From NCBI GenBank assembly GCA_044222245.1, contig JBGANQ010000002.1, positions 103,667-167,666 of the forward strand: 64,000 nt of DNA, read 5' to 3'. Below, piece after piece: positions 17,161-63,786 of the stretch; position 1 is the first letter of the stretch; every line of letters begins with the position of its first letter. The DNA comes from Polyangia bacterium (GTDB lineage: Bacteria; Myxococcota_A; Polyangia; Palsa-1104; JAEUJZ01). The notes beneath the pieces are model-generated. The model searched no databases. It was not told the origin of the DNA and saw only the letters and a list, made by a program, of their open reading frames with translations. A program made the position numbers and the translations under genes.

Positions 17161-18392
17161 GCGCGCTTTTGCGGCTGTTCTCGCCCGCCTACCGGCATGC
17201 CCTCAAGGCCGAGGCGGAGGGGCGCTATATCGAGGCGGCGCGCGCCTTCGCCCTGTGCGGGCAGCGCCGCAAGGTCGCCGAGATGCACCTGTTGGAGGCG
17301 GAGAAGCGCGGCACGGCGGCCAGCGCCCTGCGCGAGCTGCAGGTCGCGGCGCACTTTCTGGGCGCGGATGAGCACGCGGATCAAGAGCTGCTGCGGCGCG
17401 TCGGACACGCCTACCTGCGCTCGCTGCAAAAGGGCGTGCTGTCGGCCGCCGACCGCGAGCTGTGCCACGAGGCGGCAGAGCTCCTTTTGCGCAGCGGCGA
17501 TGCCAAGGCGGCGGCGGCGGCCTACGAGCTCGGCGGCGACAGCGAGCGCGCGGCGACGATGTACCAGCAGGCCGGCGAGGTCGAGAAGGTCGAGGCGCTG
17601 CTCGGCGCCCAGGAGCAGCAGCGCCGCCGCGCCCACGCCGAGCGCGAGCACTTCGAGGCCTACCGCACCCACCTGGAGCTCGGGCAGCGCGATGAGGCGC
17701 TGGCGGCGCTCAAGGCCTGTCTGGCGAGCGTCGCCATCGCCGACCGCGCCGAGCCGCTGCGCCTTTACGAGGAGCTCAAGGCGCATCTTCTGACCTCCGG
17801 GGTGGTGCGGCTGCGCAGCACCGCGGCGCTCGGTGCCGGGCAGGCGGGCGCCGAGTCGGCGGACGGCGCAGCGCGGGTGCAGGTCTTTGCCGGCGCGCTG
17901 CCGCTGCGCATCGGCCGCGAGCCGGGCTGCGCGCTGCCGCTGCGCGATCCCGGGGTCTCGCGCGAGCACGCGCAGCTCGAGCTCACAGGCGATGGCAGCT
18001 TCGCCCTGCGCGAGCTTCTGGCCAAGAACGGCACCCTGCTCGGCGGGCTGCCGCTGCACCCGGGCAGCTGCCTGCCGCTGCGCGACCGCGGTGAGATCGG
18101 CATCGGCCAGCATGTGACGCTGCGCTTCCAGGTGGTCGAGCAGGAGCTGCAGCTGGAGCTGCTGCGGGGCCTTGAGCGCGGGCTGCGGCTCCACGTCGCG
18201 CCGCGGCCGCTGGCCCTGGTGCTGGACGGTGGGCAGCGGCTGGCCGAGCTGCACTTCGTCAAGGGGCGACCGCTCTTGCGGGTGCTTGCGGGGGCGCCGT
18301 GGACCCTCAATGGGCGCCGGGTGCCGCCGCAGGTGCAGCTTGTGCGCGGGGATCTTATCGAGCTGGCCGGGCAGCGCATCGAGGTGCTGTGA
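17157..18392 (+). CDS. FHA-domain protein with a helical (TPR-like) N-terminal region
   Basis: In-frame part of track ORF 16608..18392 starting at GTG 17157 (GTGA overlap with the SLT stop). The FHA core reads LRIGREPGCALPLRDPGVSREHAQLEL..NGTLLGG. Confidence 0.75.
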   Translation: MSALLRLFSPAYRHALKAEAEGRYIEAARAFALCGQRRKVAEMHLLEAEKRGTAASALRELQVAAHFLGADEHADQELLRRVGHAYLRSLQKGVLSAADRELCHEAAELLLRSGDAKAAAAAYELGGDSERAATMYQQAGEVEKVEALLGAQEQQRRRAHAEREHFEAYRTHLELGQRDEALAALKACLASVAIADRAEPLRLYEELKAHLLTSGVVRLRSTAALGAGQAGAESADGAARVQVFAGALPLRIGREPGCALPLRDPGVSREHAQLELTGDGSFALRELLAKNGTLLGGLPLHPGSCLPLRDRGEIGIGQHVTLRFQVVEQELQLELLRGLERGLRLHVAPRPLALVLDGGQRLAELHFVKGRPLLRVLAGAPWTLNGRRVPPQVQLVRGDLIELAGQRIEVL

Positions 18393-26173: not shown

Positions 26174-26203
26174 TTGCAGAGCGTGCAGTTTAGGTGATAG
26201 AGT
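26174..26203 (+). promoter_or_regulatory. Sigma70-like promoter TTGCAG-N18-(TGA)TAGAGT, 6 nt upstream of the lon ATG (leaderless-type)
   Basis: Read directly from the sequence. An extended -10 TG is present, and there is no room for a Shine-Dalgarno. Confidence 0.45.
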
Positions 26204-26209
26204 GACCGC

Positions 26210-28688
<2,479 letters not shown>

Positions 28689-28855
28689 GCCGCCGCGGGT
28701 CGAGCCGCGGCGTCGGCTTCGGTCCGACCCGCGGTCGGCTGCGGTGCGCGCCGCGGGGCCAGTGAAAAAATCTAAGTCTTCAAAAGGTTTTTCTTGACTG
28801 GCCCGCGCGCCCTCTGTTACCAGTTACATCCACCTGGTTGCCGGAGGGTTTGCAA

Positions 28856-28927
28856 GGGCGTATAGCTCAGTGGTAGAGCATCGGCCTTACAAGCCGAGGG
28901 TCACAGGTTCAAGCCCTGTTGCGCCCA
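28856..28927 (+). tRNA. tRNA-Val (anticodon TAC)
   Basis: Manual cloverleaf: acceptor GGGCGTA/TGCGCCC, D arm GCTC-AGTGGTA-GAGC, anticodon arm TCGGC-CTTACAA-GCCGA, T arm ACAGG-TTCAAGC-CCTGT. No encoded CCA. Confidence 0.9.
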
Positions 28928-28958: not shown

Positions 28959-29032
<74 letters not shown>

Positions 29033-43153: not shown

Positions 43154-45019
43154 TCACGAGCCGTTGCCATCGAGCTCGGGACCGGGCGGCCGGGGCAGCG
43201 GTGGCCCCGGCGCCAGAGGCTTGGGTCCGGCGCTCTTTTTAGGGGAGGGCCCCGCCGACTCTTCCCCTTCTTCATTATTGAGCCGGACGTGGACCCGGCG
43301 AAACCCGGCGGCGTCGGCGTGCTTGCCGACCAGGGACTCATATTTGTAGGTCTTGGCGCCGCGCGGACCGGTGGCTCGGCACGAGCCGCCCGGGCGGATG
43401 ACGGCCTCGATGCCCGGGCTGTGCTTGTCCGATGGCCTGAGGGCGAGCTGCGACTCCTGACCGCACTCGATCGAGTCGACCGCGTCTTCCTCGGAGTAGA
43501 CAAACCGCACCTTGATCTCGCGCGGGTCGGCGGGCTCCTTGGCGGCATCGGCGGTCGGCGCGGCGGCGGCGGTCGGCAGATCCGCGGGCGCAGCGGTGAG
43601 ATCGAGGCTCGGGGTGACCAGCAGATCGACGGCCGCCGCGGCTCGCGCGCTGCCCAGATCGGCCACCGCTGGCGGCACCGGCGCCAGCGTGCGACCGGCG
43701 GTCAGCGCCGGCATGCGGGCGAAAAAGGAGAGCAGCCCGGCGGCACCGCCCAGGCCGAGCACCAGGATGGCGACGATGCGCAGGCCGGGGTGGCGGCGTC
43801 GCGGCGGCGGCGGCTCTGGCTCTCCTGCGGCGCCCGGCTCCCGCGCCTTGACCTGCTTGAGCAGGTCGCTGAGCAGCGCCACTCCCATCTGCGGCGTCTC
43901 GTTGGCCGAGTAATGCGGCGGCGGCTCCTCGGCTCGCTTGCTCGGTGGCGGCGCTGCTTCCTCACTGCGCTTGTTCTCGGCGCGCCCGTGGGTCGGCCAC
44001 TCGGGCGTGGTCGCGTAAAGCCCCACCAGCGGCTTGGCCGCGCGGCCGCCCGCCGCCACCTTAGCGAACGCTCCTTCGGGCAGCTGGCGGATAAGCTGCA
44101 GCAGCTCTCCCGCGTCCGCCGGTCGGCGGGCTGGGTCCTTGTGCAGGACGTTCCCTAAAAGATCCTCCAGCTCCTGCGACAGCGCCCGCCGGCCGTTGGT
44201 CTTGACCCGCTGCTGCCGCTGCACGAGCTGGCGGATGTGGCTGACCCGGCTGACCTCGGCCTCCCCGCCAAGCTCCAGCGAGCCGTTGAGCATCTCGAGC
44301 AGCAGCATGCCCAGGGAGTAGACATCGGTGCGCAGCGTCGCCTCTCCGGTGGCGAGCCGCTCGGGCGCCGCGTAGCGGGTGTTCTCGGCGCCGCGCACCG
44401 TCGAGTCGTCCGACAGCAGCGAGCTCGCCAGCTTGCCGATGGCGAAGTCGGTGACCTTGACGATCTCGATGGGTCCCTCGGCGGTCTCCTTCTGGGTGAG
44501 AAACAGATTCCGCGGCTTGAGGTCGCCGTGCACGATGTTGCGGCGGTGGGCGGCGGCGATGGCGCTGACGGTCTGGCGCCACAGGATGAACGCCCGCTCG
44601 CTGGAAAGCGGTCCGCTGCGCTCCAGGTGGCGCGCCAGGTCCTCGCCCTCCAGGTGCTCCATGGCGATGTAGGGCCGCCCGTCTTCGGCGCGTCCGCTGT
44701 CGTAGAGCGTGACCACGTGCTCGTGCTTGATGTTGCCGATCGAGCGCACCTCGGTATCAAAGCTATCCAGCTCCGCCTTGGTGCACTGCAGCAGCTTGAT
44801 CGTCACCATCCGCCCGAGCTGCGGCTGCTCGGCGGCGTAGACCTCGCTGCGCGGACCGACGCCGATGCGACTCTGCAGGATGTACTTGCCGACGAGGATG
44901 CGGCGCTCGACGATCAGCCGGGCTTGATCGCGTGGGCACAGCTCGAGCTGGGCCGCGTAGATCTGCCGGCACTGGGGGCACAGCTTGTAGCCCGAGGGTG
45001 ACTGCGGGGATGCTGACAC
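43154..45019 (-). CDS. Membrane Ser/Thr protein kinase with an N-terminal zinc-ribbon-like CxxC..C motif
   Basis: GTG 45019. CPQCRQIYAAQLELCP, kinase core IGVGPRSEVYAA..IKLL..HGDLKPRNLFL..TDFAIGK, one TM segment, and an unknown C-terminal domain. Confidence 0.85.
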   Translation of the reverse strand: MSASPQSPSGYKLCPQCRQIYAAQLELCPRDQARLIVERRILVGKYILQSRIGVGPRSEVYAAEQPQLGRMVTIKLLQCTKAELDSFDTEVRSIGNIKHEHVVTLYDSGRAEDGRPYIAMEHLEGEDLARHLERSGPLSSERAFILWRQTVSAIAAAHRRNIVHGDLKPRNLFLTQKETAEGPIEIVKVTDFAIGKLASSLLSDDSTVRGAENTRYAAPERLATGEATLRTDVYSLGMLLLEMLNGSLELGGEAEVSRVSHIRQLVQRQQRVKTNGRRALSQELEDLLGNVLHKDPARRPADAGELLQLIRQLPEGAFAKVAAGGRAAKPLVGLYATTPEWPTHGRAENKRSEEAAPPPSKRAEEPPPHYSANETPQMGVALLSDLLKQVKAREPGAAGEPEPPPPRRRHPGLRIVAILVLGLGGAAGLLSFFARMPALTAGRTLAPVPPAVADLGSARAAAAVDLLVTPSLDLTAAPADLPTAAAAPTADAAKEPADPREIKVRFVYSEEDAVDSIECGQESQLALRPSDKHSPGIEAVIRPGGSCRATGPRGAKTYKYESLVGKHADAAGFRRVHVRLNNEEGEESAGPSPKKSAGPKPLAPGPPLPRPPGPELDGNGS

Positions 45020-45230
45020 GCAGATTTATTTATATCACGCCGCAGCGGCTTTATGAGCGGCCGCAGCGGCTCCTAGGAGCAGATAGCTGTCCCGCGCAGC
45101 AGAGTACATGTGCTGGTACATGTCCCGGAACGCCGCCGCGCTCTGCTTGACCGCGCCGCGGCGAGGCGCGGCCCGGAGCCGGTGTAGGCAGCAGTAGGAC
45201 CGCGCCGCAAGAAGACATGACTGCCCTGGC

Positions 45231-50236: not shown

Positions 50237-50986
50237 ATGGTTCTTATTGCCGGGGTCTCCAAGCGCTTTGCCGAGAAGCCGGTGCTCACCGCGGTGCAGC
50301 TGCAGCTCGCGCCCGGTCGGACCCATGTGCTGCTCGGCTGCAGCGGCAGCGGCAAGACGACCCTTTTGCGCATGATCGCCGGCACGCTCGCCCCCGACTG
50401 CGGAACCATCACCGTCGATGGGGTGAGCGTCGAGGTCCGCGACCCCTGCCTGCTGGCCGATCGCCTCGGCTACATGACGCAGGAGGGCGGCCTGTTTCCT
50501 CACCTGCGGGCCGCCGATAACATCAGCCTGGTCGCCCGCGTGCGCGGCTGGAAGCCGGCGCGCCTTGCCGCCCGCCTTGATGAGCTTACCGCCGTGGTCG
50601 GTCTGGAGGCGGGCCTGCTGCAGCGCTATCCGGCGCAGCTCAGCGGTGGCCAGCGGCAGCGTGTGGCGCTGATGCGGGCGCTGTTCCTCAACCCTCCTTA
50701 CATACTCCTTGATGAGCCGCTCGGCGCCGTCGATCCGATCATCCGCCGCGAGCTGCAGGAGACGCTCAAGCGCATCTTCAGCGCGCTCCACAGCACGGTC
50801 ATCCTGGTCACTCATGATGTCGGGGAGGCGGCGTTTTTCGGCGATACGATCACGCTCCTTCATCAGGGGCTCGTCCTGCAGCACGGCAGCTTCGCCGATC
50901 TGGCGCTGCGGCCGGCGCACCCCTACGTCAGCGAGTTCCTGATGGCGCAGCGGCCGGTGCCGCAGCTGGGAATCCTTAGCGCATGA
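50237..50986 (+). CDS. ABC transporter ATP-binding protein (osmoprotectant/betaine-type by context)
   Basis: MVLIAGVSKRF.., Walker A GCSGSGKTT, signature LSGGQRQRVALMRAL, Walker B ILLDEP. ATG 50237 lies 7 nt after TAGCAT; ATG 50228 is an alternative start. Confidence 0.85.
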   Translation: MVLIAGVSKRFAEKPVLTAVQLQLAPGRTHVLLGCSGSGKTTLLRMIAGTLAPDCGTITVDGVSVEVRDPCLLADRLGYMTQEGGLFPHLRAADNISLVARVRGWKPARLAARLDELTAVVGLEAGLLQRYPAQLSGGQRQRVALMRALFLNPPYILLDEPLGAVDPIIRRELQETLKRIFSALHSTVILVTHDVGEAAFFGDTITLLHQGLVLQHGSFADLALRPAHPYVSEFLMAQRPVPQLGILSA

Positions 50987-52521
50987 GACCGCCCGCGCGG
51001 CTGCTCGGCGGCGCCCTCCTGCTTGTGCTGGCGACCCTGGCCAGCGGCGCCGCCGCGGCGCCCGGGCGGAGTCTTTCTGCCGGCGTCATTCGCGTCGCCT
51101 CCAAGCCGTTTACCGAGAGCTACATCCTGTCCGAGATGGTCGCTCAGCTCATCGAGGATGTGGGCGAGGCGAGCGCCGAGCGCCGCTTCGGACTCGGCGG
51201 TCCCAACCTGGTGGTCGAGGCGCTGCGCAGCGGCGAGGTCGACGTCGACGTAAACTACACCGGCGCCCTGCTTCACCTTTTCCTCAAGGACCGCAGCACC
51301 GCCACGATCGACGAGCTGCGCGCCGAGCTGCACCGCCAGGGCCTGGCGCTCGGCGGCTCGCTGGGATTTAACAACACCTACGCGATTGCGGTGCGGCGCC
51401 AGACCGCGGAGGAGCTGCACCTGCGCCAGGTCAGCGACCTGCGCGGACACCCCGAGCTGCGCGGCGCCTTCACCGCCGACTTCCTCAACTACGACGACGG
51501 CTTCTACAAGCTGCAGGAGGTCTACGGGGTCGCCCTGAGCGCGGTCAAGCCGATGCAGCACGCCCTTGCCTACCGCGCCTTGCACAGCGGCGAGATCGAC
51601 CTCACCGACGCCTACACCACCGATGGGACGCTGCCGCAGTTTGACCTGACCCTGCTGCAGGATGACCGCGACTTTTTCCCCAAGTACCTCGGGGTGGTCG
51701 TCGCCCGTCTCGAGCTCGTACAGCGCTACCCGGCAAGCTGGGCGGCGCTGCGGCGCCTGGATGGCCAGCTGGACGAGGCGACGATGATCAGCCTCAACGC
51801 CGGGGTCGACAACAAGCTGCGCTCGGTGGAAGAGACGGCGCGCACGTTCCTGCGCTCGCGCGGCCTGCTGCACCGCTCCGCAGCGGGCACCGCGATGGCG
51901 CGAGGCTCGGTCCTGGACTCTGGGCTGGCGGTCGCTACCTACGAGCACTTCACCCTGGTCTTGATCTCGCTGCTCCTGTCCTGTTTGCTCGGTGTTCCGC
52001 TTGGCATCATCGCCTTTGAGTACCGCAAGCTCGGGCAGGTGCTGGTCGCCGCGACCGGGCTTTTGCAGACCATTCCTTCGCTGGCGCTGCTCTGCTTCCT
52101 GATTCCGCTGCTCGGCATTGGCGCGCTGCCGACGATCTTCGCGCTGTTCATCTACGGACTCCTGCCCATTGCCCAAAGTACAATCTCGGGTCTGCAGTCT
52201 CTGGACAAGCGGCTCCTTGAGACAGCGCGGATCCTCGGCCTTACCCGCATGCAGCGGCTGCGCCTTATCGAGCTGCCGCTCGCCTCAATCAGCATCCTGG
52301 GCGGCATAAAGACGGCGGCAGTGATAAACGTCGCCACCGCGACCATCGCCGCGCTCATCGGCGCCGGTGGGTATGGCGGCTACATCACCCGCGGTCTGGC
52401 CATGAATGATCTGCCGACGATCTTAAAGGGCGCGATTCCTACCGCGCTCATGGCGGTCGGCTTTCACGGCATCTTCGAGCTCCTGGGCCGCTTCCTGATC
52501 CCCGAGGGGCTGCGCAGCTAA
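50983..52521 (+). CDS. Fused substrate-binding (OpuAC/OpuBC-like glycine-betaine family) and permease ABC subunit
   Basis: The N-terminal half reads VIRVASKPFTESYILSEMVAQLIE..DVNYTGALL..TDAYTTDG. The C-terminal half has 5-6 TM helices with an EAA-like loop (LETARILGLTRMQRLRLIELP). ATGA overlap with the ATPase gene. Confidence 0.85.
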   Translation: MRPPARLLGGALLLVLATLASGAAAAPGRSLSAGVIRVASKPFTESYILSEMVAQLIEDVGEASAERRFGLGGPNLVVEALRSGEVDVDVNYTGALLHLFLKDRSTATIDELRAELHRQGLALGGSLGFNNTYAIAVRRQTAEELHLRQVSDLRGHPELRGAFTADFLNYDDGFYKLQEVYGVALSAVKPMQHALAYRALHSGEIDLTDAYTTDGTLPQFDLTLLQDDRDFFPKYLGVVVARLELVQRYPASWAALRRLDGQLDEATMISLNAGVDNKLRSVEETARTFLRSRGLLHRSAAGTAMARGSVLDSGLAVATYEHFTLVLISLLLSCLLGVPLGIIAFEYRKLGQVLVAATGLLQTIPSLALLCFLIPLLGIGALPTIFALFIYGLLPIAQSTISGLQSLDKRLLETARILGLTRMQRLRLIELPLASISILGGIKTAAVINVATATIAALIGAGGYGGYITRGLAMNDLPTILKGAIPTALMAVGFHGIFELLGRFLIPEGLRS

Positions 52522-52576
52522 GCCGCCCTCGCGCCGCCCAGCAGGCCGCAGCTGCCGTCGGAGAGACGGACAAACA

Positions 52577-52605
52577 TTTACAAATTCCGTCTGGTAGCGC
52601 TTAAT
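52577..52605 (+). promoter_or_regulatory. Sigma70-like promoter TTTACA-N17-CTTAAT upstream of the split kinase gene
   Basis: Read directly from a locally AT-rich stretch. AAGAGG lies 7 nt before TTG 52625. Confidence 0.35.
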
Positions 52606-52624
52606 GATACGGTAAGAGGTCGTT

Positions 52625-53036
52625 TTGGTCGGCACGCAGATCGGTGTCTATAAGATCACGCACCTGCTCGGTGAAGGTGGGATGGGCACTGTCTACGAGG
52701 CAGTGCATGAGCAGCTTGGTAAGCGGGTTGCGATCAAGGTCTTGCGCAACGATATGGCGCGCAATTCCGAGGGCTTGACGCGCTTTTTCAACGAGGCCCG
52801 AGCGGTCAATTTGATCGAGCACCCGGGGCTGGTGCAGATCTTCGAGTTCGGCGAGCTGCCGAGCGGCAGCGCCTATCTGGTGATGGAGCACCTGCAAGGC
52901 GAGACCCTGAGCGCGCGCCTGAAGCGGCGCGGCCAGCTGCCAGAGCCCGAGGCGCTGTACCTGTGCTACCAGCTGGCCGCGATCCTGGCCGCCGCCCACG
53001 AGCGCGGCATCGTCCATCGGGACCTCAAGCCGAGTA
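52625..53036 (+). pseudogene. 5' fragment of an interrupted Ser/Thr kinase gene (subdomains I to VIb)
   Basis: YKITHLLGEGGMGTVYEAV..VAIKVL..YLVMEHLQG..GIVHRDLKPS. After 53036 the frame continues as nonsense that is antisense to the next gene. Confidence 0.85.
53028..53036 (+). repeat. Core copy 1 (left junction), AGCCGAGTA, inside GGACC-N13-GGTCC
   Basis: GGACC 53020-53024 and GGTCC 53038-53042. Confidence 0.9.
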
Positions 53037-53106
53037 CGGTCCAGCCGTGGGTGACCGCCGGCCCGGCGATCCGTGGCAGGGGCGCAGGAGGGACTTGGCG
53101 GCGCCC

Positions 53107-54255
53107 TCAGAAGCGGAACAGACCGACGAACGCCGGCGAGCCGACTCCCACGATCGGGCTGCCGAGGGCGGTCAGCTTGCCCGCCTTATCGATGCGGAAC
53201 ACCACCAGGTTGCCCAGGTTGGGCGTGGCCGCGGTGCGCTGGTTGGCGACCACAAGCAGGGTGCCGGTGTCGTCCACCGCGAAGCTGCGCGGGACCTGAC
53301 CGCGCGTCGGCTCGTTGCCGATCAGGGTGACCACACCAGTGGCCGCGTCCAGGGTGAAGATCGCGATCGCATCCAGGCCGCGGTTGGAGCCGTAGACAAA
53401 GCCGCCGCTTGGGTGGACGGCGAGCTCGGCGCCGGTGTTGTTGGTGGTGTTGCCGGCGGGCAGGGTGGACACGGTGGCTTGCGGCGAGAGCCTGCCGGCG
53501 GCGGCGTCGTAGGCGTAGGTGGTCAGGGTGCTGGCGGTCTCGTTGAGGCCGAAGGCCCACTTCTGGCTGGGGTGAAAGGCCAGGTGGCGCGGCCCGGCGG
53601 CCGCCGGCGGGCTGACCGCGGGCGGCGTGTTGGCGGTCAGCTTGCCGCCGGAAAAGCTGTACTGGGCGATGAGGTTGGCGCCCAGGCAAGGGACAAAGGC
53701 GTAGGCGCCGCTGGCGCTCGGGACCACCTGGTGCGCCTTGGCCCCCGGCGACTTGGTGTCGCTGGCGGCGCCGAGCGAGCCGTCCCCGAGCACCGGGAAC
53801 ACGGCGACCGAGCCGCCGCCATAGTTTGCCACCAGCACCGCGTCGCCCCCCGGACTGACCGCGACGTGCGCCGGTCCCGCCCCGAGCGTGCCGGTCTTGC
53901 CGCGCGCCGTGAAGCCGGCGGTGCGCGGGTCGAAGCCGAACGCCAGCACCTCGGAGCTGTTCTCATCCACCGCGAACACCCGCGCGCGCTGGGTGTCCAC
54001 GGCGAGGAACGAAGGGTTTGTCCCCGCCGCCGTCGCGCCCTTCAGGGTGAGCGTCCCCGCCGCCACATCGACCAAGAAGGCGCGGAGCTGCCCGTCGCTC
54101 GAGCCGGTGAGCGCGTACACCGGCCCAGGCGCTGCTGCCGCGTCCACCGCCGTCGCCCCGTCCGGCGTGCCGCCGTCTACGGGCGGCGAGCTGCTGCTCG
54201 TCTGCGAGCAGCCTAGGGTCGCCCACAACATCGTGACCAAGATTGGAAGTCGCAC
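53107..54255 (-). CDS. Lipoprotein, 7-bladed beta-propeller lactonase family (6-phosphogluconolactonase-like)
   Basis: GTG 54255 and lipobox LGC. LVANYGGGSVAVF, PRHLAFHPS, ELAVHPSGGFVYGSNRG and PRSFAVDDTGTLLVVANQ. Confidence 0.75.
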   Translation of the reverse strand: MRLPILVTMLWATLGCSQTSSSSPPVDGGTPDGATAVDAAAAPGPVYALTGSSDGQLRAFLVDVAAGTLTLKGATAAGTNPSFLAVDTQRARVFAVDENSSEVLAFGFDPRTAGFTARGKTGTLGAGPAHVAVSPGGDAVLVANYGGGSVAVFPVLGDGSLGAASDTKSPGAKAHQVVPSASGAYAFVPCLGANLIAQYSFSGGKLTANTPPAVSPPAAAGPRHLAFHPSQKWAFGLNETASTLTTYAYDAAAGRLSPQATVSTLPAGNTTNNTGAELAVHPSGGFVYGSNRGLDAIAIFTLDAATGVVTLIGNEPTRGQVPRSFAVDDTGTLLVVANQRTAATPNLGNLVVFRIDKAGKLTALGSPIVGVGSPAFVGLFRF

Positions 54256-54515
54256 CAGAGCAGTCTACCCGAGGGCCCGCCTGCCTGCACCTCGCCGTCG
54301 CCGAGCTGCCCTGGCGGCCGCCGGCGCTTGCCCGCCGCGCCGCCTGCACGGTCGGCTGAGCCATCCGCATTCAGTCCCGGCCGCGCGCCCGCCCGCAGTG
54401 TAGCGCCGGTCGGCGGGCCGCCTTCCCTCAAGCCGAGCAAGGTCGCCCGGCAGCTTGCCCGTCGCGGCGGCGCGCGCGGGGAAGGCTTGCGGAGCCGGTC
54501 GCGCGCCCCCGCCGG

Positions 54516-55133
54516 CTACAGATACTTTTCGATCTGGCCCAGGATCTCCAGCCGATCCACCAGGTCGGTGAGGTAGTCGAGCTTGTCGCTGGCCAGGGTG
54601 ATCACCGGCGAGAGGTCGTAGCGCGCAAACCAGTCCTCATAGAGCTTGTTGAGCCGCTGCAGGTAGGCGATGGGCAGGTCCTTCTCCATCGCTCGACCAC
54701 GCCGGGCGATGCGCTGGCGCAGGGTCCGCACCGGGGCGCGCAGGTAAATCATCAAGTCGGGCGGCGCCAGCGAGCCCGAAGCCACGGTGTACAGCTCGTG
54801 ATAGGTCTGCCAGTCGCGGCGATCGATGGCGCGCTGCTTGTAAAGGTTGCGCGCGAAGATCTCCGCGTCCTCGTAGATCGTCCGGTCCTGGACCACGGTG
54901 CCAGGCTCGCGCTCCAGCTCGCGGTGCAGGCGGAACTTGTGGGCGAGAAAGTAGATCTGAGACTTGAAGGCGTAGCCCTTCATGTCGCGGTAGAAGTCCG
55001 CGAGGTAGGGGTTTTGGTCATTGGGCTCGAGGAACGGCTTGAACCCGTACCACTTGCAGAGAAAGCCGACGAGCTCAGTCTTGCCAGCGCCGATGTTGCC
55101 GGCGACCGCGATGAAGCGCTTCTTGCTGGACAT
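54516..55133 (-). CDS. Deoxynucleoside kinase family protein
   Basis: P-loop AVAGNIGAGKT, then EPNDQNPYLADFY, FKSQIYFLAHKF and QDRTIYEDAEIFA. Confidence 0.85.
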   Translation of the reverse strand: MSSKKRFIAVAGNIGAGKTELVGFLCKWYGFKPFLEPNDQNPYLADFYRDMKGYAFKSQIYFLAHKFRLHRELEREPGTVVQDRTIYEDAEIFARNLYKQRAIDRRDWQTYHELYTVASGSLAPPDLMIYLRAPVRTLRQRIARRGRAMEKDLPIAYLQRLNKLYEDWFARYDLSPVITLASDKLDYLTDLVDRLEILGQIEKYL

Positions 55134-55168
55134 GAAATCGCCCTACGCTACGCCGCGGGGCGCAAAGT

Positions 55169-56482
55169 TTACAGAAATTCTGCACCGACCACCTGGGGCG
55201 CCGTCGCGCGGCCGCCCCGGCCCATGGGCTGCAGCCGGCCGTAGGTCAGCGACCGCCACAGCCACTCCAGCGGGCCAAAGCGGAAGCGCGTCAGCCAGGC
55301 GCGCGCGAACAGGATCTGGAAAAGGAACACGGCCAGCGTAATCGGCACAAGGTGGCTGGCCCGCACCCGACCGATGAGTCCCAGACCCCAGCCATAAAAA
55401 AGGAAGGTGCACAGGAGGCTCTGCATCAGATAGGTCGTCAGCGCCATCTGACCCACCGGCGCGAGCAGCAGAAGGACCCGCCGCCAGGCGGCGCGCTGCA
55501 GCAGCAGGACCACCGCCGCGGCGTACCCGCAGGCAAGGAGCATCGTCCCGAGCTCGGCGAGAACCGACAGCAAGCTCCCGACCGCCTCCGGCAGCACGAT
55601 CTTGCGCAGGCCGAGGAAGTAGCGCACGGCAGAGAGCGAGGAGCCGGCGAACCCGAGCCCCAGACCCCAGGCCGCGAGCTTGCGGAAAAGCGGCAGGCTG
55701 TCGGGGAGGCGCTGGAAGAGCCGCTGCGTCCCCGCCCAGTAGCCGATCAGGAAGTGACCCCAAAGGCCCGGAATGTACGGCACCCAGAACCTTCCCACAT
55801 GATAGTAGACCTGCTGCAGGTGCAGCTGGGTCAGCAGGCGCCGATCGTGGCCGGTCATGGCGGCGAGCAGCTGCGCGCGGTAGGCGTCGAAGTCGGCTGG
55901 CTTGGCCAGGATCGGCTCGATGGCCTTGGCGACTCTGGGCAGCGAGAAGACGAGCTGCGGGATAAGGGCCAGCGCGAACGCCCACAGAAGGACGCGGCTG
56001 CCGCGCTGGCGCCGAAACAACAGCAGGCCCACGCCGGCGAGCGCGTAGCTCCACAGGATGTCCCCCCACCACAGCAGCAGCACATGGCCGATGCCGATAA
56101 GCGCCAGCGCCGCCATCCGGCGCAGGTGCGTCCCGACCGCGCTGCGTCCTCCCGCTTCGGCGCGCTGGAGCTGCAGCGCGAACCCCAGACCGAACAGGAA
56201 GGTGAGCAGCGCCATTGCCTTGCCGTTGACAAACACGCCGAGCAGGACCAGGAACACGCGGTCGAGCACCCGGGTCTGCGCCATCAGCGTGGCGCGCGGC
56301 ATGAACGCGCGGCCGCTGAACCAGGGCACGGTGTTGGCAAGCAGCACCCCATAGAGCGCGCAGCCGCGCAGCACGTCCAGGACCGCGAGGCGCTCGCCCG
56401 CTGCCGTGGGCGCCGCCGGTGCCGCGGCCAGGGCCGCTGGGTCTGGGTCGCCGTCTGCCGCGCGCTGGATTGCCAGGTCCAT
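55169..56482 (-). CDS. DUF418 (YeiB-like) polytopic membrane protein
   Basis: RLAVLDVLRGCALYGVLLANTV.. and about 10 hydrophobic segments. C-terminus reads ..RFGPLEWLWRSLTYG. Confidence 0.75.
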   Translation of the reverse strand: MDLAIQRAADGDPDPAALAAAPAAPTAAGERLAVLDVLRGCALYGVLLANTVPWFSGRAFMPRATLMAQTRVLDRVFLVLLGVFVNGKAMALLTFLFGLGFALQLQRAEAGGRSAVGTHLRRMAALALIGIGHVLLLWWGDILWSYALAGVGLLLFRRQRGSRVLLWAFALALIPQLVFSLPRVAKAIEPILAKPADFDAYRAQLLAAMTGHDRRLLTQLHLQQVYYHVGRFWVPYIPGLWGHFLIGYWAGTQRLFQRLPDSLPLFRKLAAWGLGLGFAGSSLSAVRYFLGLRKIVLPEAVGSLLSVLAELGTMLLACGYAAAVVLLLQRAAWRRVLLLLAPVGQMALTTYLMQSLLCTFLFYGWGLGLIGRVRASHLVPITLAVFLFQILFARAWLTRFRFGPLEWLWRSLTYGRLQPMGRGGRATAPQVVGAEFL

Positions 56483-56599
56483 GCACGGGAGTATACCTGC
56501 CCGCGCCGCCGCAGCCAGGCGCCGCTCGCCAGCCTTCCGCAGGCGCGGCCGCGGCAGCGCGGAAGGTCTGCGCCGGCGCCGCCCTCGCGGCGGACCGTG

Positions 56600-56608
56600 A
56601 GCCGAGTA
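56600..56608 (+). repeat. Core copy 2, AGCCGAGTA, inside GGACC-N13-GGTCA
   Basis: GGACC 56592-56596 and GGTCA 56610-56614. It lies in the intergenic region between the DUF418 and oxidoreductase genes. Confidence 0.85.
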
Positions 56609-56821
56609 AGGTCACCCGTGACGGCGACCCCCCGCAGCATTCCGCCTCCGCGCGTCCGGCTCGGCCCTCTGCGGGCCTTAAGCCGGAACGATGGTCAGTG
56701 CCGGCTGCGTCCGCGGTCGACCGCACCTGCCGGGCCGCGGCCCGCGCGTCTCGGGGTCGGGGTCGCGGGCGGGCGCGGCAAAAGGGTTGTACGCCGCCGC
56801 CGTCCTGGCCACAATCATCGC

Positions 56822-59092
<2,271 letters not shown>

Positions 59093-59254
59093 TCCGCCTT
59101 CCCCGCGTCTCCTGCCCACCCTCCTTCGCGCCGCCGCGCTGGCCTCGGCCTGCCCCGCCGCCGGCGCAGCGGCAGGAGCCGGAGCCCTCCCGCCGCCCTT
59201 CCCTCGGCCGCGCGGAGGCCCGGCCAGCGCCGGGGGGCCGCGCCTTGGACCTTG

Positions 59255-59263
59255 AGCCGAGTG
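59255..59263 (+). repeat. Core copy 3, AGCCGAGTG, preceded by GGACC-N3 and followed by ACATC
   Basis: GGACC 59247-59251. AGCCGAGTGACATC matches the right junction AGCCGAGTAACATC at 13 of 14 positions. Confidence 0.85.
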
Positions 59264-59369
59264 ACATCGCGCCGCATCCAGCTCGTCGGTGAGGCGCAGG
59301 TGGGGATGGGAGCGGACAGCTTGCGGACAGGCTCCCGCGGGAGCTGCAGTCCTGCGCGCGGTCAGCAGC

Positions 59370-61142
59370 TCAGCGGCGCTGGATCATCTGCTCGAGGTTG
59401 TACATCTGCCGGGCCTTGGGCGGCGCGGCGGCGGCGGGGCTTGGCGAAGGGGGTGACTTGGAGAGGTCGGCGGCGCTCGGGTCGGCGTCGAAGTTGTACT
59501 GCGAGCGCTCCCGCTCCCGCTGCCGCTCGTTTTCGACCTGCTGCTGCTCGAAGCGATCCCACATCGCCCGCGGCAGCGTCAGCGCGTAGGCGAAGTCGAA
59601 GTGCTCCCGCTTGCTCGGCGCCACATCGAACCGCCAGGTCAGCAGGCCGTTGGCGTCCTTGTAATCGGCCATCCGCGAGGCGCCCATGAACTTGGTCTCG
59701 ATGCTCGGATCCGCCGAGACCGGGAACTGGTCTTGGATCAACAGCTGCCGGCTCTTGCCGGAGTAGTTGGCGATCTCGATCTGCCACTGGTTGGTGATGG
59801 TGACCTTCTTGGCGAACACGCCCGACCCCTCGACATCCCCCTTGAGCAGGGTGCGCTTGACCTGCAGCCGCTGATCGGGACCCAGGTAGATGTCAAAGTC
59901 CTCGCCCGCCGCCGCCAGGTGGCTGAACGCCGAGGTCCCGACGAAGTTACCGTCGAGAAACACCGAGACCTTGCCCAGCAGCAGGGGGATCCCTGTGCCA
60001 TTATTCAGCCGCGCGCGCAGGAACACCTGGGCCGTCAGCGAGGGAATCGCGACGTGCAGCAGGTTGGCCGCCAGCTTGCTTGTCTTCAGCGTGACCTGAT
60101 GATCCGCGTTATCACTGGCGATCGTCTCGCGCCCGGGGAGCTGCACGGTCAAGGTCGTCGAGGCGAGCGCCGCCCCGGCTGCGGACTCCGCCGGAGCATT
60201 GTCCTCGGCGCGACTGTCGGCGCCTCCCGCGCGCCGCGCGCTCCCGCCGGGCGGGGTGAGCGAGCCTGCCGTCACCCGCCACGCTTGCAGCATGCCGGGC
60301 GCGGTGCCGACGGCGGGGCGCGCGGTGGACAGGGTCATGCTGACGTCTTCCCAGGCCTCGCCCGTGGTCTGCCGGATGTTGGCGTTGGAGACAAGGTAGT
60401 ACGTCCCCCCTTCCGCCGAGCCGCGCAGGTCGTACAGCGGCGTCCACGAGACGTTGGTGACGGTGTACTCCAGGGACACCTCGCCTTCGACCCCGGGCTT
60501 GCCGTGATAGGTCACATCGACCTCAAAGGCCGAGCGGCGGCGCGCCGTCATCGCCTCGCTCAGCTTGCGGGCCGCCTCGTCGCGCTCGCGCTGCAGGTTC
60601 TGGACGAGCAGGTTGGCGGCGCGGATCTTGACCTGGTAGCCGCCGCGCCGCTCTTCCATGAACTCGACGGCCGCCTTCCAGCCGTCCGTCTTGATCGTGC
60701 CGAGCCGCAGCTCGTGATCGCTCTGCGCCGTAGTCAGGGCTGCGAGGTTGCCAAGCAGGCGGAGCTGCTCGGTAAAGTTGGCGAGCCGGTCGCGCTCGGC
60801 GTTGAGCTTTTGCTCCAGCTGGTCGACGGCCAGCTTGAGCGGGTCGGTCAGCCACTCGCGCTCCGAGGCGGGCTCGGTCGGGCGCACCGAGACGCCGGTG
60901 ATGGTCACCCCCTTGCCCGCCGCGCGCACCGAGTCGCGCACCAGCGCCACGGGCAGGCTGTGAAAGCGCACGGCGCCGCTTCCCTTATCGGCCGGCAGCG
61001 CCTGCACGCGACGCACCACGGCGCGATCGGAGAACACGAGCACCGAGTCGATCTTGCCGGTAACCGGCAGCACGGGCGTCTCCGCCCGGGCCGACTGGGT
61101 AAAAAGAACGAGCAGCGTCGTGAGCAAGCACTTCCGGATCAT
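59370..61142 (-). CDS. DUF4139 (mucoidy-inhibitor MuiA-like) secreted protein
   Basis: ATG 61142 with AGGAG 7 nt upstream and signal peptide MIRKCLLTTLLVLFTQSARA. VLVFSDRAVVRR..AVRFHSLP..WTPLYDLR..VFLDGNFVG. Confidence 0.75.
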   Translation of the reverse strand: MIRKCLLTTLLVLFTQSARAETPVLPVTGKIDSVLVFSDRAVVRRVQALPADKGSGAVRFHSLPVALVRDSVRAAGKGVTITGVSVRPTEPASEREWLTDPLKLAVDQLEQKLNAERDRLANFTEQLRLLGNLAALTTAQSDHELRLGTIKTDGWKAAVEFMEERRGGYQVKIRAANLLVQNLQRERDEAARKLSEAMTARRRSAFEVDVTYHGKPGVEGEVSLEYTVTNVSWTPLYDLRGSAEGGTYYLVSNANIRQTTGEAWEDVSMTLSTARPAVGTAPGMLQAWRVTAGSLTPPGGSARRAGGADSRAEDNAPAESAAGAALASTTLTVQLPGRETIASDNADHQVTLKTSKLAANLLHVAIPSLTAQVFLRARLNNGTGIPLLLGKVSVFLDGNFVGTSAFSHLAAAGEDFDIYLGPDQRLQVKRTLLKGDVEGSGVFAKKVTITNQWQIEIANYSGKSRQLLIQDQFPVSADPSIETKFMGASRMADYKDANGLLTWRFDVAPSKREHFDFAYALTLPRAMWDRFEQQQVENERQRERERSQYNFDADPSAADLSKSPPSPSPAAAAPPKARQMYNLEQMIQRR

Positions 61143-61364
61143 CACCAGGCTCCTGTGCAAAGGCCAAGTTCGCGCGCGATGCGGTGCTGGGGATGAACGT
61201 GTGAGCCCCTGCAAGGATCTATCGACGCTAGCCGGGCGCCGCAGAGCCATTTGCGCCGGAGGTCCCGAGGCTCCCGGGAGGTGGGCGCTACCAAGATCTG
61301 TCCGCAGCCCCTCCCCACGCTGCGCGGACAGCTTCCCGAGGCATCTCACTTGGAGTCGACTATT

Positions 61365-61373
61365 AGCCGAGTA
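61365..61373 (+). repeat. Core copy 4 (right junction), AGCCGAGTA
   Basis: Followed by ACATCATGCTGGTC, which is the continuation of the kinase reading frame. Confidence 0.9.
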
Positions 61374-62467
61374 ACATCATGCTGGTCGCCGACTCGGCCA
61401 TGCCCTCGGGGGAGCGGGTGAAGCTGCTCGACTTCGGGGTCGCCAAGCTCGCCATCGCCCTGCACGCGGCGGACAGCCAGGTGCGCACGCACGCCGGGCA
61501 GACCCTGGGCACCCCCCAGTACATGTCGCCCGAGCAGTGCCGCGATGTCAGTCAGGTCGATGGGATGACCGACGTGTACGCCCTGGGCGTCATCCTTTAC
61601 CAGATGCTTTCGGGGCAGGTGCCGTTTATAAGCTCGGGCGAGTTTGCCATCGCCGCCATGCACCTTTACGAGCCACCGCCGCCGCTGCAGTCCCGGGCGC
61701 CGCAGGTGACCGAGCTCACCGCGGAGCTTGTCCACCGCATGCTCGCCAAGAACAAGGAAGAGCGCCCGACCATGGCGCAGGTGCTGACGGTGCTGCAGAC
61801 CATGGGCATCAACGTCACCGCCAGCACCCAGAAGGCCTCGGCGATCTCGCTTGGCGGGCAGTCGGGGTCGATCTCGATGGCCGACATCCAGGCGGCCGAG
61901 CGCCTGGGCACGCTCGGTGAGCTGAGCGGAACCAGCGGTCGCAGCATCCCGGCGGCGCTGCTGAGCGCGGCGATCCCGGTGGTGCCGGCCAACAACCCAA
62001 CGACGCTCGGCACCAGCACCGGGCAGCTGACCCACCGCTCCAGCCGCCTGTTCTGGGGGGTGACCGCCGCCGCGGGGGCGAGCGTGCTGGCCGTGACGCT
62101 GCTCGCCAGCGGCCTGCTTAGCGACAACAAGACCGCGACCACCGCGCCGGTGCGCTGGCAGGTGAGCACGCGGCCGCCGGGGGCGACGGTGCTGCGCTCG
62201 GACAACGGCACCATCCTCGGCAAGACGCCGTGGCACTACGAGCAGCCGGCGAGCGCTGGCAAGCTGCAGGTCAGCATCCAGTACACCGGCTACCAGACCA
62301 ACACCCTGACCCTGGACAGCGGCCGCGACGAGACCCTGGAGCTGACCCTGGTGCCGATCCCGGCGCCCAAGGTCGAGCCGCCGCCGCCGCCGCCGCCCAA
62401 GCACAAGAGCCGCTCCCACAAGGCCAAGCCCGACGAAGAGGGCGATCCCAAAGAAGAGCTGCCCTAG
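61374..62467 (+). pseudogene. 3' fragment of the interrupted Ser/Thr kinase gene (subdomain VIb Asn to XI, plus a TM segment and C-terminal domain)
   Basis: (N)IMLVADSAMPSGERVKLLDFGVAK..GTPQYMSPEQ..DVYALGVILYQML..RPTMAQV. An in-frame TAG at 61364-61366 immediately precedes CCG AGT AAC. Confidence 0.85.
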
Positions 62468-62476
62468 CCGCGCCGG

Positions 62477-63625
62477 CTACAGCAAAGGGGCGACGCGCTG
62501 CGCCACCTCGTCGTGGAACCACTTGACCGCGGCCTCGATCTGACCGATGCGAAAGTGGCTGTCGGCGCCTGCCCGCAGGCCGGCCTGGATCGACTCGGCG
62601 ATCGCCAGATCCTCGCGCTGAAACACCGAGCCTTCGATGAGCTGGAAGGTCTTGTCCCAGTAGCGGCGCTGCTCCTCGGTCTCGGGCGGCCGCGGGATGA
62701 GCATCCGGTGGTGGTAAAGCAGGTGCTCGGGGCCGTCGGGGAAGATGGTGAGCAGGGTCACCCAGTCGGGATGGAACACGAGGATGGTATTGGGAAACAG
62801 CAGATAAAACGGCGTCGTCATCGCCCGCAGATCCCAGCGCTCCGGCGGCAGCTCGCGCGCCTGGAGGAGCGTCTTGCGCGCCCCGATCGAGCGGCTGTGC
62901 GGCGGCAGCGACCGCACAAGGACATTGTCGAGAAAGAACCGCGAGATGGTCTCGCGGTGCAGCGAGCGGACGTGGTAGCCCTCCAGGAAGGCATCGATGA
63001 GCAGCTTCCAGTTGGCCGGCCGGCGACCGGTCGCCTCGTGATGGACGACATGGGTGCCAAGGCCCAGCCCCGTGAGCTCGGCGGCGAGCGGACCGAGATA
63101 GGAGTCGATCGGCAGCTTGGCGCCGCGCCCGCCCGGCTGGACAAAAAGGAGGCCGCAGCGCTCGGCCAGCGGCACCCGCACAAGCCCCGCGTCCTCGTCG
63201 CGCAGGCTGGGAAAGCAGTCGCGCCGCGGCACCCGCAAAAGGGCGCCGCCGAGCTCGTACGACCAGGCGTGGTAGCGGCAGACAAAGGCGCGCGCGTTGC
63301 CGCGTCGCTCGCTGACTAGCTGGGTCCCGCGGTGGCGGCAGACGTTGAGGAAGGCGCGCACCTCGCCGTCGGGCGAGCGGACCAGGAGCAGCGGGATCCC
63401 CGCCGCGTCATGGGTCAAAAAGTCGCCCGGCTCCTTGAGCTCGGAGGTGTGGCCGACGACCAGCGGCAGGCCTTGGAACAGCGCCCGCTGCTCGGCCTTA
63501 TAGAACTTCGGACAGGTGTACTGCTCGACGGGAATCAGCCAGTCTTGCGGCGCGGCGGCGGCGGGGCCCGGCTCGGCCATCGCCAGCAGTTCGGTCAGCA
63601 GCTCAAGCTCCAGCGCGCGCTCCAT
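62477..63625 (-). CDS. Rieske [2Fe-2S] aromatic-ring-hydroxylating oxygenase alpha-subunit-like protein
   Basis: Rieske motif CRHRG..(17 aa)..CRYHAW, with a catalytic domain downstream. ATG 63625 lies inside track ORF 62477..63739. Confidence 0.85.
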   Translation of the reverse strand: MERALELELLTELLAMAEPGPAAAAPQDWLIPVEQYTCPKFYKAEQRALFQGLPLVVGHTSELKEPGDFLTHDAAGIPLLLVRSPDGEVRAFLNVCRHRGTQLVSERRGNARAFVCRYHAWSYELGGALLRVPRRDCFPSLRDEDAGLVRVPLAERCGLLFVQPGGRGAKLPIDSYLGPLAAELTGLGLGTHVVHHEATGRRPANWKLLIDAFLEGYHVRSLHRETISRFFLDNVLVRSLPPHSRSIGARKTLLQARELPPERWDLRAMTTPFYLLFPNTILVFHPDWVTLLTIFPDGPEHLLYHHRMLIPRPPETEEQRRYWDKTFQLIEGSVFQREDLAIAESIQAGLRAGADSHFRIGQIEAAVKWFHDEVAQRVAPLL

Positions 63626-63786
63626 GCACCCACGGTAGCATAGACCGCGGCGGCGCCCTGGAAGGGGCAGCGCGCAGCGGAGGAGGGCCCCGCGGATCGC
63701 TCGCGTCGTGGAGGCTGGCGGCGGGACGCGGCGGTCCACGGGACCCTTCTTCGCTGCGCGCTGCCGGGGCGCGCGGGGTGACCGGC

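Follow-up and report, generated by a model that had tools for sequence, protein, structure and literature searches.

How does a protein kinase gene come to be cut in two inside its catalytic loop, and what is the DNA that separates the halves? We took up this question for a Hanks-type Ser/Thr kinase gene in a 64-kb stretch of DNA from a Polyangia bacterium (contig JBGANQ010000002.1, positions 103,667 to 167,666), referred to here as the window, in whose own numbering all positions are given. A sequence-only reading of the window had described the gene as broken by a single 8.3-kb insert between 9-bp direct repeats and had seen in the repeat a signature of transposition or site-specific integration rather than of slow decay. 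In our analysis, the break is a clean, recent, site-specific insertion of DNA into a once-intact kinase gene, not gene decay; instead of a single insert, however, there are four cassettes parted by copies of one site. We consider it likely that these form a recombinase-less array built by site-specific recombination at the kinase-loop site, with the enzyme supplied in trans.

The break itself was confirmed at the level of the single codon. Translation of the 5′ open reading frame (ORF) recovered Hanks subdomains I to VIb, with the kinase frame lost past codon AGT 53033-53035, and on the far side the frame before ATG 61379, where gene callers begin a 362-amino-acid protein, reads TAG CCG AGT AAC ATC ATG and then NIMLVAD...DFGVAK...GTPQYMSPEQ, which is the exact continuation of the kinase. 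Pattern matching placed the 9-mer AGCCGAGTA at 53028-53036 and at 61365-61373, bounding the insert, and removal of 53037-61373 (joining 52625-53036 to 61374-62467) gave an ORF of 1,506 nt and 501 amino acids with no internal stop. The joined ORF reads ...IVHRDLKPSNIMLVAD...DFGVAK...GTPQYMSPEQ and contains GEGGMGTVY, AIKVL, HRDLKPSN, DFG, and SPE, as expected of a Hanks Ser/Thr kinase; in precomputed annotations both fragments match PF00069, and the transmembrane segment of the 3′ fragment was recognized by eye from the translation. Of the two expression signals ascribed to the 5′ fragment, the ribosome-binding site stood (AAGAGG at 52614-52619, upstream of the fragment), while the promoter did not, as a promoter scan returned no σ70-like site upstream. 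The G+C content of the insert (0.71) is the same as that of its flanks, in a window of 70% G+C. A third copy of AGCCGAGTA, at 56600, is not a chance occurrence, since it lies in one of the five related sites described below.

The same arrangement was retrieved by exact-protein look-ups from independent JGI, ENA, and Logan contigs, where it is colinear at 99.5 to 100%. One of these (L082) covers the whole array, colinear with 51379-63631 at 99.5%, while the left junction is crossed by L089 and L090 and the right junction by L081 and L083 to L087. Given that the split recurs in independent assemblies, it is no misassembly of this record, and the misassembly at either junction that the sequence-only reading had named as its refutation is not borne out by the data.

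Intact relatives of the gene, for which an alignment check had been proposed at the outset, exist as well. A search with the joined protein returned P0001, an intact ortholog of 503 amino acids with 75% identity, whose contig (L098) has the same flanks as the window, namely, OpuAC (ABC) on the left and Rieske and Band_7 on the right, with a single AGCCGAGCA copy where the window has two. An intact allele of 502 amino acids, P0243, was found via cluster members of the C-terminal fragment; its contig, from activated sludge (L114), aligns to 50313-53036 and 61365-62546 at 98 to 99% with a 9-nt overlap and reads ...CATCGGGACCTCAAGCCGAGTAACATCATGCTGG with one copy of the 9-mer, showing that the predicted empty site exists in nature. 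The single-copy 9-mer in L114 and the intact syntenic ortholog in L098 also confirm that both fragments were once one gene. The 5′ fragment, which is also called, identical, in other assemblies (P0121), is orthologous to the N-terminal part of P0243 and P0001, and the C-terminal fragments P0002 to P0005 match the 3′ fragment of the window (P0003 to P0005 being 87 to 91% identical); intact orthologs range from 500 to 503 amino acids. High G+C, four or more Hanks kinase genes, and best relatives labelled Myxococcales, Polyangia, Kofleriaceae, or Haliangiales would place the host among the uncultured Myxococcota; it is represented in the activated-sludge metagenome and in several other metagenome samples. 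A genome scan for orthologs yielded kinases of ≤55% identity only, with another split kinase at 0 of 80 loci, and a 42-mer spanning the restored junction had no match in JGI metagenome contigs, a collection that likewise failed to return the site 1 sequence present on one of the JGI contigs, so the lack of a match carries no information.

To place these alleles relative to each other, identities were computed over the C-terminal 355 amino acids. Intact P0256 is 100% identical to split P0003, intact P0243 98.9% identical to the split window allele, intact P0257 97.7% identical to split P0004, and intact P0001 90.1% identical to the split allele of L115; the closest relatives of split alleles are thus intact alleles in four sublineages. 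The last 64 nt of the fourth cassette (61301-61364) are common to the window and to the differing last cassette of the L099 lineage, which indicates that the insertion is probably shared. The simplest history would be that the lineages shared an insertion which the intact sisters then lost precisely, the alternative being homologous replacement from another strain. Ratios of nonsynonymous to synonymous divergence (dN/dS) are 0.04 to 0.18 for the N-terminal and 0.21 to 0.37 for the C-terminal fragment, and pairs of split alleles are not above pairs of intact ones, suggesting that any evolution of the fragments as pseudogenes has been brief. Between the window and L114, synonymous divergence is 0.11 in the N-terminal fragment (52625-53035) and 0.02 in the C-terminal fragment, a contrast suggesting that strains have exchanged homologous DNA around the site and that the gene has a mosaic history. 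Next to the kinase, the Rieske oxygenase gene (window 62547-63639) is deleted in L114 and L083, where ∼70 nt of its 3′ end are left beside two GACCGCGGC copies, and it is missing in the L099 lineage too; it seems to be a deletion polymorphism of the ordinary kind, with no relation to the kinase site.

What, then, lies between the two halves? Using third-position G+C together with Pfam, we defined five genes in the insert, the gaps between which sum to <1 kb and leave no space for a further gene (Table 1). Beyond Pfam, NCBIfam places the MuiA-family protein above its cut-off, whereas the lactonase has 6-phosphogluconolactonase matches below cut-off and the molybdopterin oxidoreductase only subthreshold Fdh/Nas-like matches; the MuiA-family ORF stays open to 61349. 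Domains of integrases, resolvases, or transposases were absent from the Pfam matches of the insert and of the candidate ORFs scanned over the 64 kb, and Rfam, run on window and insert, found two tRNAs elsewhere and no bridge RNA, intron, or other known RNA.

A site of ∼21 bp, GAC-N4-AGCCGAG-N4-GTC, is present in five plus-strand copies, at both junctions and in the intergenic gaps that separate the cassettes. At ≤1 mismatch this pattern occurs in the 64-kb window only at sites 1, 3, 4, and 5, and a 14-mer search allowing ≤2 mismatches gave 4 matches versus 0.19 expected. All five sites copy the kinase sequence GACCTCAAGCCGAGTAACATC to differing extents, just as the direct repeats between tandem elements of staphylococcal cassette chromosome (SCC) and cis-mobilizable element (CIME) arrays copy the attachment site in their own target gene. 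In site 1, the left arm and the 7-bp segment AGCCGAG are the kinase codons for D-L-K-P-S and the right arm is the end of cassette 1; in site 5, the 7-bp segment and the right arm are the kinase codons for (K)P-S-N-I. The sites divide the insert into four cassettes, C1 to C4.

Table 1. Coordinates of the split kinase gene, its insert genes, cassettes, and sites in the window
Feature	Position	Strand	Remarks
Kinase 5′ fragment	52625..53036	+	TTG start; Hanks subdomains I-VIb, GEGGMGTVY...AIKVL...GIVHRDLKPS
Lactonase, 7-bladed beta-propeller	53107-54255	-	Pfam PF10282, E 3.7e-75
Deoxynucleoside kinase (dNK)	54516-55133	-	Pfam PF01712
DUF418/YeiB-like membrane protein	55169-56482	-	Pfam PF04235
Molybdopterin oxidoreductase, 756 amino acids	56822-59092	+	Pfam PF04879, PF00384, PF01568
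MuiA-family DUF4140/DUF4139 protein	59370-61142	-	Pfam PF13600, PF13598; NCBIfam TIGR02231, 282 bits
Kinase 3′ fragment	61365..62467	+	Catalytic-loop Asn, DFG, activation loop, SPE, transmembrane segment, C-terminal domain
C1: lactonase	53035..54430		TCCGT at 53070-53074, 35 nt past the 7-bp segment
C2: dNK and DUF418	54438..56599		2,169-bp unit
C3: molybdopterin oxidoreductase	56607..59254		Motifs TCCGC and GCGGA near the ends
C4: MuiA-family protein	59262..61364		Right end shared with L099 lineage
Site 1 (attL-like)	53021-53041	+	GACCTCA/AGCCGAG/TACGGTC; 0 mismatches to GAC-N4-AGCCGAG-N4-GTC
Site 2	54424-54444	+	TCCCTCA/AGCCGAG/CAAGGTC; lactonase/dNK gap; 2 mismatches, both in left arm
Site 3	56593-56613	+	GACCGTG/AGCCGAG/TAAGGTC; DUF418/oxidoreductase gap; 0 mismatches
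Site 4	59248-59268	+	GACCTTG/AGCCGAG/TGACATC; 1 mismatch; right arm resembles kinase-side ACATC
Site 5 (attR-like)	61358-61378	+	GACTATT/AGCCGAG/TAACATC; 1 mismatch

Comparison with other strains showed gain and loss at the level of single cassettes, with one site per boundary, which is the pattern of an integron array. In L095 and L096, the right end of C2 is joined to the left end of C2 via GGACCGTG-AGCCGAGCA-AGGTCGCCC, combining the left flank of site 3 with the right flank of site 2, and L096 is a cyclic unitig with a 30-nt terminal overlap (an assembly-graph cycle). L081 and L083 carry a second, 88% identical C3 allele in tandem, joined through GGACCTTG-AGCCGAGTA-AGGTCACCC, in which the left flank comes from site 4 and the right flank from site 3. 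In L094, the right end of C2 is joined to AGCCGAGTG-ACATCGCG, the C4 side of site 4, and C3 has probably been deleted there. Three metagenome contigs (L081, L094, and L097) begin or end exactly at site 3. Because the sites differ on both sides of AGCCGAG, each recombinant junction maps the exchange to within the 7 to 8 bp of AGCCGAG(T). A different break is seen in L088:1-572, from a 99.4% identical strain: homology ends at window 59331/59332, 63 nt into C4, after GCGGACAGCTTGCGGACAGG, and low-GC DNA with a thymidine kinase gene follows; GCGGACAGCTT is present too at 61324, near the opposite end of C4.

To gain an idea of the anatomy of the site, we aligned 15 junctions from the window and from other loci. 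The asymmetric AGCCGAG is bordered by inner arms GACCTYR and YAAGGTC, and the kinase supplies GACCTCA and xAACATC with its codons GAC CTC AAG CCG AGT AAC ATC, and the cassette termini mimic the sequence on both sides of the target. Farther out, TCCGC occurs at +34 to +37 nt in five of the nine left ends of cassettes (site 1 has TCCGT at 35), and GCGGA ends at -36 to -38 in four of nine right ends, which are those of window sites 3, 4, and 5 and of L099, the last being homologous to site 5; the background frequency of these outer motifs is 0.0018 per nt. Within the window, GCGGA 56559-56563 ends 36 nt before site 3 and GCGGA 61324-61328 ends 36 nt before site 5, while C3 has TCCGC 56641-56645, 34 nt past site 3, and GCGGA 59212-59216, 38 nt before site 4. 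Several right ends have a hairpin of which GCGGA makes up the 3′ arm; the window has such hairpins at 56533-56566 in C2 (CCTTCCGCAGG...CGCGGAAGG) and at 61298-61331 in C4 (CTGTCCGCAGC...GCTGCGCGGACAG). The right end of L110 has ACGGA 39 nt before the 7-bp segment, and back-translation of the tails of P0194, P0240, and P0172 gives CCGCAG or CCGCGG at +36. From these elements, a circular cassette would carry a dyad of ∼89 bp, GCGGA-N36-[7 bp]-N36-TCCGC, with the asymmetric 7-mer fixing its orientation. The 7-7-7 layout of the core, with arms GACCTYR/YAAGGTC and all mapped exchanges in AGCCGAG, would fit the core anatomy of tyrosine recombinases of the lambda-Int/Xer/Cre type. GTTRRRY cores, the hallmark of attC, are absent at the cassette boundaries. 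A strict TCCGC hairpin regular expression run over the window, which bulged hairpins escaped, showed no genome-wide enrichment of TCCGCAG, and a degenerate site pattern searched in JGI metagenome contigs gave eight matches in unrelated sequence, apparently by chance.

The same codons are broken in other kinases and by other cargo. At the codons interrupted in the window, L099 to L104 carry A2M/MG2/PITM-like genes that have only the last 64 nt in common with the window insert, and L105 carries a 6.3-kb cassette running from a lactonase, an 83% identical copy of that in C1 adjoining a site, through a spermine synthase, with a perfect site on the left and a 16-bp kinase-derived stretch at its one junction seen. 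A search with the N-terminal fragment, in which matches were apparently limited to proteins of ≤∼240 amino acids and the sample is biased accordingly, returned 120 short kinase N termini, 86 of them without DFG. Their kinase sequence ends mostly either past HRDLKPx (31 cases, termed class II, to which the window belongs) or at HR/HRD (28 cases, termed class I), and homologous nonkinase tails recur behind different kinases. Two further class II loci were informative at the DNA level: L106 has one 306-amino-acid gene of unknown family between CGACCTCAAGCCGCA repeats, and L110 has a TPR gene and a 249-amino-acid gene between CGGGACCTCAAGCCCGACAA repeats. In these repeats, of 15 to 20 bp, the 7-bp segment, which matches the codons of the respective kinase, is preceded by the left arm and followed by some of the right arm. 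Across comparable inserts, the flanking repeats measure 9, 11, 15, and 20 bp, with which the part of the earlier claim that saw a transposition-type duplication falls, while its clean insertion into a once-intact gene stands. Such variable extent would be expected of an attP/attB identity block, whereas a target duplication would have a fixed length. In viral contigs, a search based on a kinase N-lobe alignment gave only distant kinases, none of them split, and no sign of a phage using the site.

Several further observations were made on kinases at this motif. Counting the split gene, the window has four or more Hanks kinase genes, three of which show complete kinase domains and an unbroken catalytic loop (2-1444 on the minus strand, which extends beyond the window start; 18176-20026 on the plus strand; and 43154-45025 on the minus strand); their loop codons differ (e.g., GACCTCAAGCCGCGGA at 44509), and they therefore lack the AGCCGAG segment. 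Just downstream of the split kinase of L106, a second kinase (L106:12717-13265) is broken past HRDIKPA, where the L107 counterpart (L107:12485-13165) runs through DFG, which adds one more insertion polymorphism at this motif; the downstream cargo includes an eCIS_core-like protein. In L205:10394-10602, two different kinase N-terminal fragments on opposite strands face each other 167 nt apart, and in the spacer lie a CTTCCGCAGC...GCTGCGGAAC hairpin and, at the canonical +37 of one fragment, a TCCGC, an arrangement resembling what an inversion or a deletion between kinase-loop sites would leave behind. A third break position is represented by P0167, P0188, and P0132, which are different kinases that end directly past YMSPE, two of them continuing with the identical tail NITLQLSDGDHRQTGSWGLIGD; a second conserved kinase motif would seem to be the target of a further element family.

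Class I breaks fall 12 to 14 nt upstream of the break position in the window. The ortholog in L115 is broken 12 nt upstream, with the repeat CCACCGGGACC and not inside AGCCGAG, by a 3-kb insert of low GC content (L115:3773-6763; 40 to 44%) whose products, an mCpol domain protein and a Cap15-like cyclic-nucleotide receptor effector, make up an anti-phage module; the L116 kinase breaks past CGGGA. In a Myxococcales metagenome-assembled genome (L206:10001-11612; GCA_016794505.1, JAEUJZ010000131.1), another kinase is broken past HRD, and the break is directly followed by a 377-amino-acid Resolvase and Recombinase protein whose nearest NCBIfam models are XisF and CcrB. From our reading of the list of tails, at least eight other N-terminal fragments share a "..QRRR.." tail that overlaps this region. 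A tblastn search with the L206 recombinase found no homolog in the window or in any fetched locus, class II loci included. Given that the permitted exchange intervals of the two classes do not overlap, they would be distinct systems converging on the same codons, a distinction that we offer as a lead, with one DNA-level example of each class.

We propose that a site-specific recombinase encoded elsewhere in the genome or on a helper element would catalyze reciprocal exchange within the 7-bp segment. Circular cassettes with one site each would integrate at the kinase site or at the site of a resident cassette, giving rise to an array, and exchange between the first and the last site would excise the array in one piece and give back the exact kinase ORF (53027 joined to 61372, ...GGGACCTCAAGCCGAGTAACATC...). 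The same kind of cassette would target the equivalent codons of paralogous kinases in related Myxococcota-like genomes. The 7-7-7 core with its distal motifs is compatible with a lambda-type tyrosine recombinase, and a serine recombinase acting at a central dinucleotide would also be possible.

How does this proposal compare with other explanations? That one 8.3-kb transposon or integrative element inserted once, the 9-bp repeat being its target-site duplication, has the perfect direct repeat at both ends and the restored ORF in its favor, and 9 bp is a common duplication length of IS4/IS1-type elements. However, the insert has no transposase, integrase, or terminal inverted repeat of the insertion sequence kind, three more copies of the site lie inside it at cassette boundaries, strains differ by single cassettes, and comparable inserts have repeats of 11, 15, and 20 bp, so we regard this explanation as highly improbable. 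More generally, with no transposase and a varying repeat length, the locus does not behave as an insertion sequence or transposon; its ends are mirror-symmetric at two short motifs only, a symmetry that may or may not reflect terminal inverted repeats. A single composite transposon was likewise rejected on the internal sites and the cassette-level variants. The only serious rival, though in our view an unlikely one, is a family of nonautonomous cut-and-paste transposons with imperfect terminal inverted repeats of ∼45 bp that inserted serially into one 7-bp target, AGCCGAG being the target duplication, with the transposase acting in trans. It would account for the mirror ends (GTC at 5-7 and TCCGC at about +36 versus GCGGA at about -36 and GAC), for the exactly 7 bp common to all window sites, and, by successive insertion beside the 5′ fragment, for the array. 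What it does not predict is that the cassette-terminal 7 nt mimic the kinase on both sides of the 7-mer, as the core arms of attP and attB would; it is these target-mimicking termini that produce the repeats of 15 to 20 bp in L106 and L110. Moreover, the lost cassette, the divergent allele gained in tandem, and the cassette that is looped or tandemly repeated all amount to reciprocal exchanges between sites, which are not usual products of a transposase.

The remaining explanations have less to recommend them. A domesticated programmed rearrangement, in which the array would leave the gene in a given cell type or under a given condition to reconstitute the kinase, as for skin/sigK, nifD, fdxN, and hupL, would agree with the exact restoration of the ORF by excision between sites 1 and 5, with the lack of relaxed selection on the fragments, with the coexistence of 100% identical intact and split alleles in databases, and with a host that apparently belongs to the Myxococcota, a group known for development; yet no recombinase is encoded by the element, cargo and cassette number vary between close strains in the manner of accessory-gene flux, and many different kinases are struck, which makes it quite improbable. 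Recombination without any dedicated enzyme, RecA dependent or illegitimate, between short kinase-like repeats of the conserved catalytic loop would suit the varying length and offset of the repeats (9 to 20 bp) and the many kinase paralogs, of which the window alone has four genes. RecA needs far more than 7 to 9 bp of identity, which is all that the window sites share, and slippage over 2 to 3 kb is very rare; as such recombination would also leave unexplained the nonkinase outer motifs at fixed ±36 nt, the inverted arms, and the arrival of foreign low-GC cargo such as the L115 defense genes, we judge it very improbable. Recombination between two kinase paralogs was rejected, the cassettes having no kinase coding sequence beyond ∼20 nt. 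An assembly or binning artefact that joined unrelated DNA inside the kinase gene could be imagined for a source that is probably a metagenome-assembled genome, but assemblies made with different assemblers at JGI, ENA, and Logan have the same junctions, and a k-mer assembler would not be misled by a repeat of only 9 bp, so the chance of this is negligible.

Against an array built by site-specific recombination in trans stand several points of its own. No recombinase for the class of the window was found in the window ORFs or in any class II locus, and the mechanism is inferred from site anatomy and junctions only. Precise excision in the strain of the window is a prediction, as the intact alleles come from other strains and could be ancestral or restored by homologous recombination between strains. 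The cyclic C2 contig may be either a free circle or a tandem duplication, and the L094 junction is supported by 23 nt only, with 2 mismatches. Site 5 and the C4 junction have poor arms, and outer motifs are missing at sites 2 and 4 (site 4 keeps GCGGA 38 nt before) and at several ends from other loci; the sample amounts to about 15 junctions, some of them related by descent. Symmetric ends resembling inverted repeats would also suit a nonautonomous transposon.

Elsewhere in the window, a Lon-like ORF (26201-28765, plus strand) has substrate-binding, AAA, and lid domains and no Lon protease domain in the Pfam list, with a separate frame of high third-position G+C at 27927-28688 within the region, which may reflect a lon frameshift or a sequencing error. 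Tandem tRNA genes follow at 28856-28927 and 28959-29032 (plus strand), just upstream of a penicillin-amidase gene, and no integrated element was evident beside them. A protein of ∼510 to 550 amino acids with HTH_31/HTH_3 and Methyltransf_33-like domains is encoded beside kinases both in the window (1539-3185, minus strand) and in the unrelated L110:650-2176, and this gene may be recurrently kinase associated.

If the site-specific array is confirmed, a conserved catalytic motif, and not a tRNA gene or a dedicated attI, would serve as attachment site, so that every paralog is a potential hotspot; this would help explain why accessory genes are in flux, and truncated kinase genes numerous, in large Myxococcota genomes, where the kinases would provide many landing pads for accessory and defense genes. 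Signaling kinases may be turned off and on by cassette insertion and array excision. For annotation, such split kinase ORFs are neither ordinary pseudogenes nor assembly errors. The site also provides a defined substrate (21 bp for the core alone, 89 bp if the outer motifs are included) and predicts a trans-acting recombinase, which could serve genome engineering in high-GC bacteria. In the full-text literature searched, coverage of which is incomplete so that novelty is not proven, we found no description of attachment sites in a kinase catalytic loop. Tentatively, and at slightly less than even chances, we suggest an undescribed integron-like cassette system with unrelated parts, in which cassettes with the ∼89-bp dyad use the D-L-K-P-x-N codons as a multicopy attachment site and kinases would be reversibly switchable via a recombinase in trans; there is a substantial chance that the recombinase and the site family are themselves new.

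Among known systems, the pdif modules of Acinetobacter plasmids (XerC/XerD) share with the window small recombinase-less modules, presumably mobilized by a recombinase of the host, and short inverted-arm sites around a center of 6 to 8 bp, but the sites of the window are in direct rather than alternating orientation, its array is chromosomal and inside a gene, and its site would seem to bear no resemblance to dif with its AT-rich center. Integrons offer a closer parallel, with tandem discrete cassettes that lack a recombinase of their own, a site at every boundary, accessory cargo, and single cassettes that are excised, deleted, duplicated, and replaced between strains. They differ in that the window has no intI beside the array or elsewhere in its 64 kb, its proximal boundary being a kinase fragment, and in that its sites are short inverted-arm cores of the double-strand type with motifs at ±36 nt and exchange in the center, whereas attC hairpins have R and L boxes with exchange at the R′ edge (RYYYAAC...GTTRRRY). 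The window cassettes also comprise one to two genes, which may point either way and apparently have upstream regions of their own, and the array sits in, and disrupts, a protein-coding gene.

SCC composite islands (rlmH/orfX, CcrAB/CcrC) likewise consist of tandem elements parted by direct repeats that copy the target gene; some of the elements lack recombinase genes and are served in trans, excision can involve single elements or the whole island, and a Ccr/XisF-like serine recombinase is found in the related kinase-loop class, at another break position (L206). In contrast to SCC, which uses the 3′ end of rlmH at a single locus, the class of the window targets many paralogous genes in the middle of the kinase ORF and inactivates them; no ccr-like gene accompanies it, and its site sequence and dyad layout are unrelated. 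CIMEs and related islands (ICESt3/CIME in Streptococcus; ssrA islands in Dehalococcoides, PMC3146451) resemble the window in being nonautonomous, att flanked, and arranged in tandem at one site, with a segment of the target gene repeated between elements. By comparison, the elements of the window are very small (1.4 to 2.7 kb) and their target lies inside a coding motif. We know of no partner integrative and conjugative element, integrative and mobilizable element, or integrase phage for the window class.

As for the fate of the gene, skin/sigK, nifD, fdxN, hupL, and SPbeta/spsM also interrupt an ORF at a short direct repeat, such that precise excision would restore it, and XisF is the nearest NCBIfam model of the class I recombinase of L206. 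Those elements, however, are single, encode their recombinase, and are fixed in the species, whereas the window has a variable, recombinase-less array of several cassettes, the presence of which differs between close strains. Taken together, the behavior of the array appears closest to that of integrons, SCC composite islands, and CIME accretion arrays, and its consequence for the kinase gene closest to that of skin/nifD-type elements.

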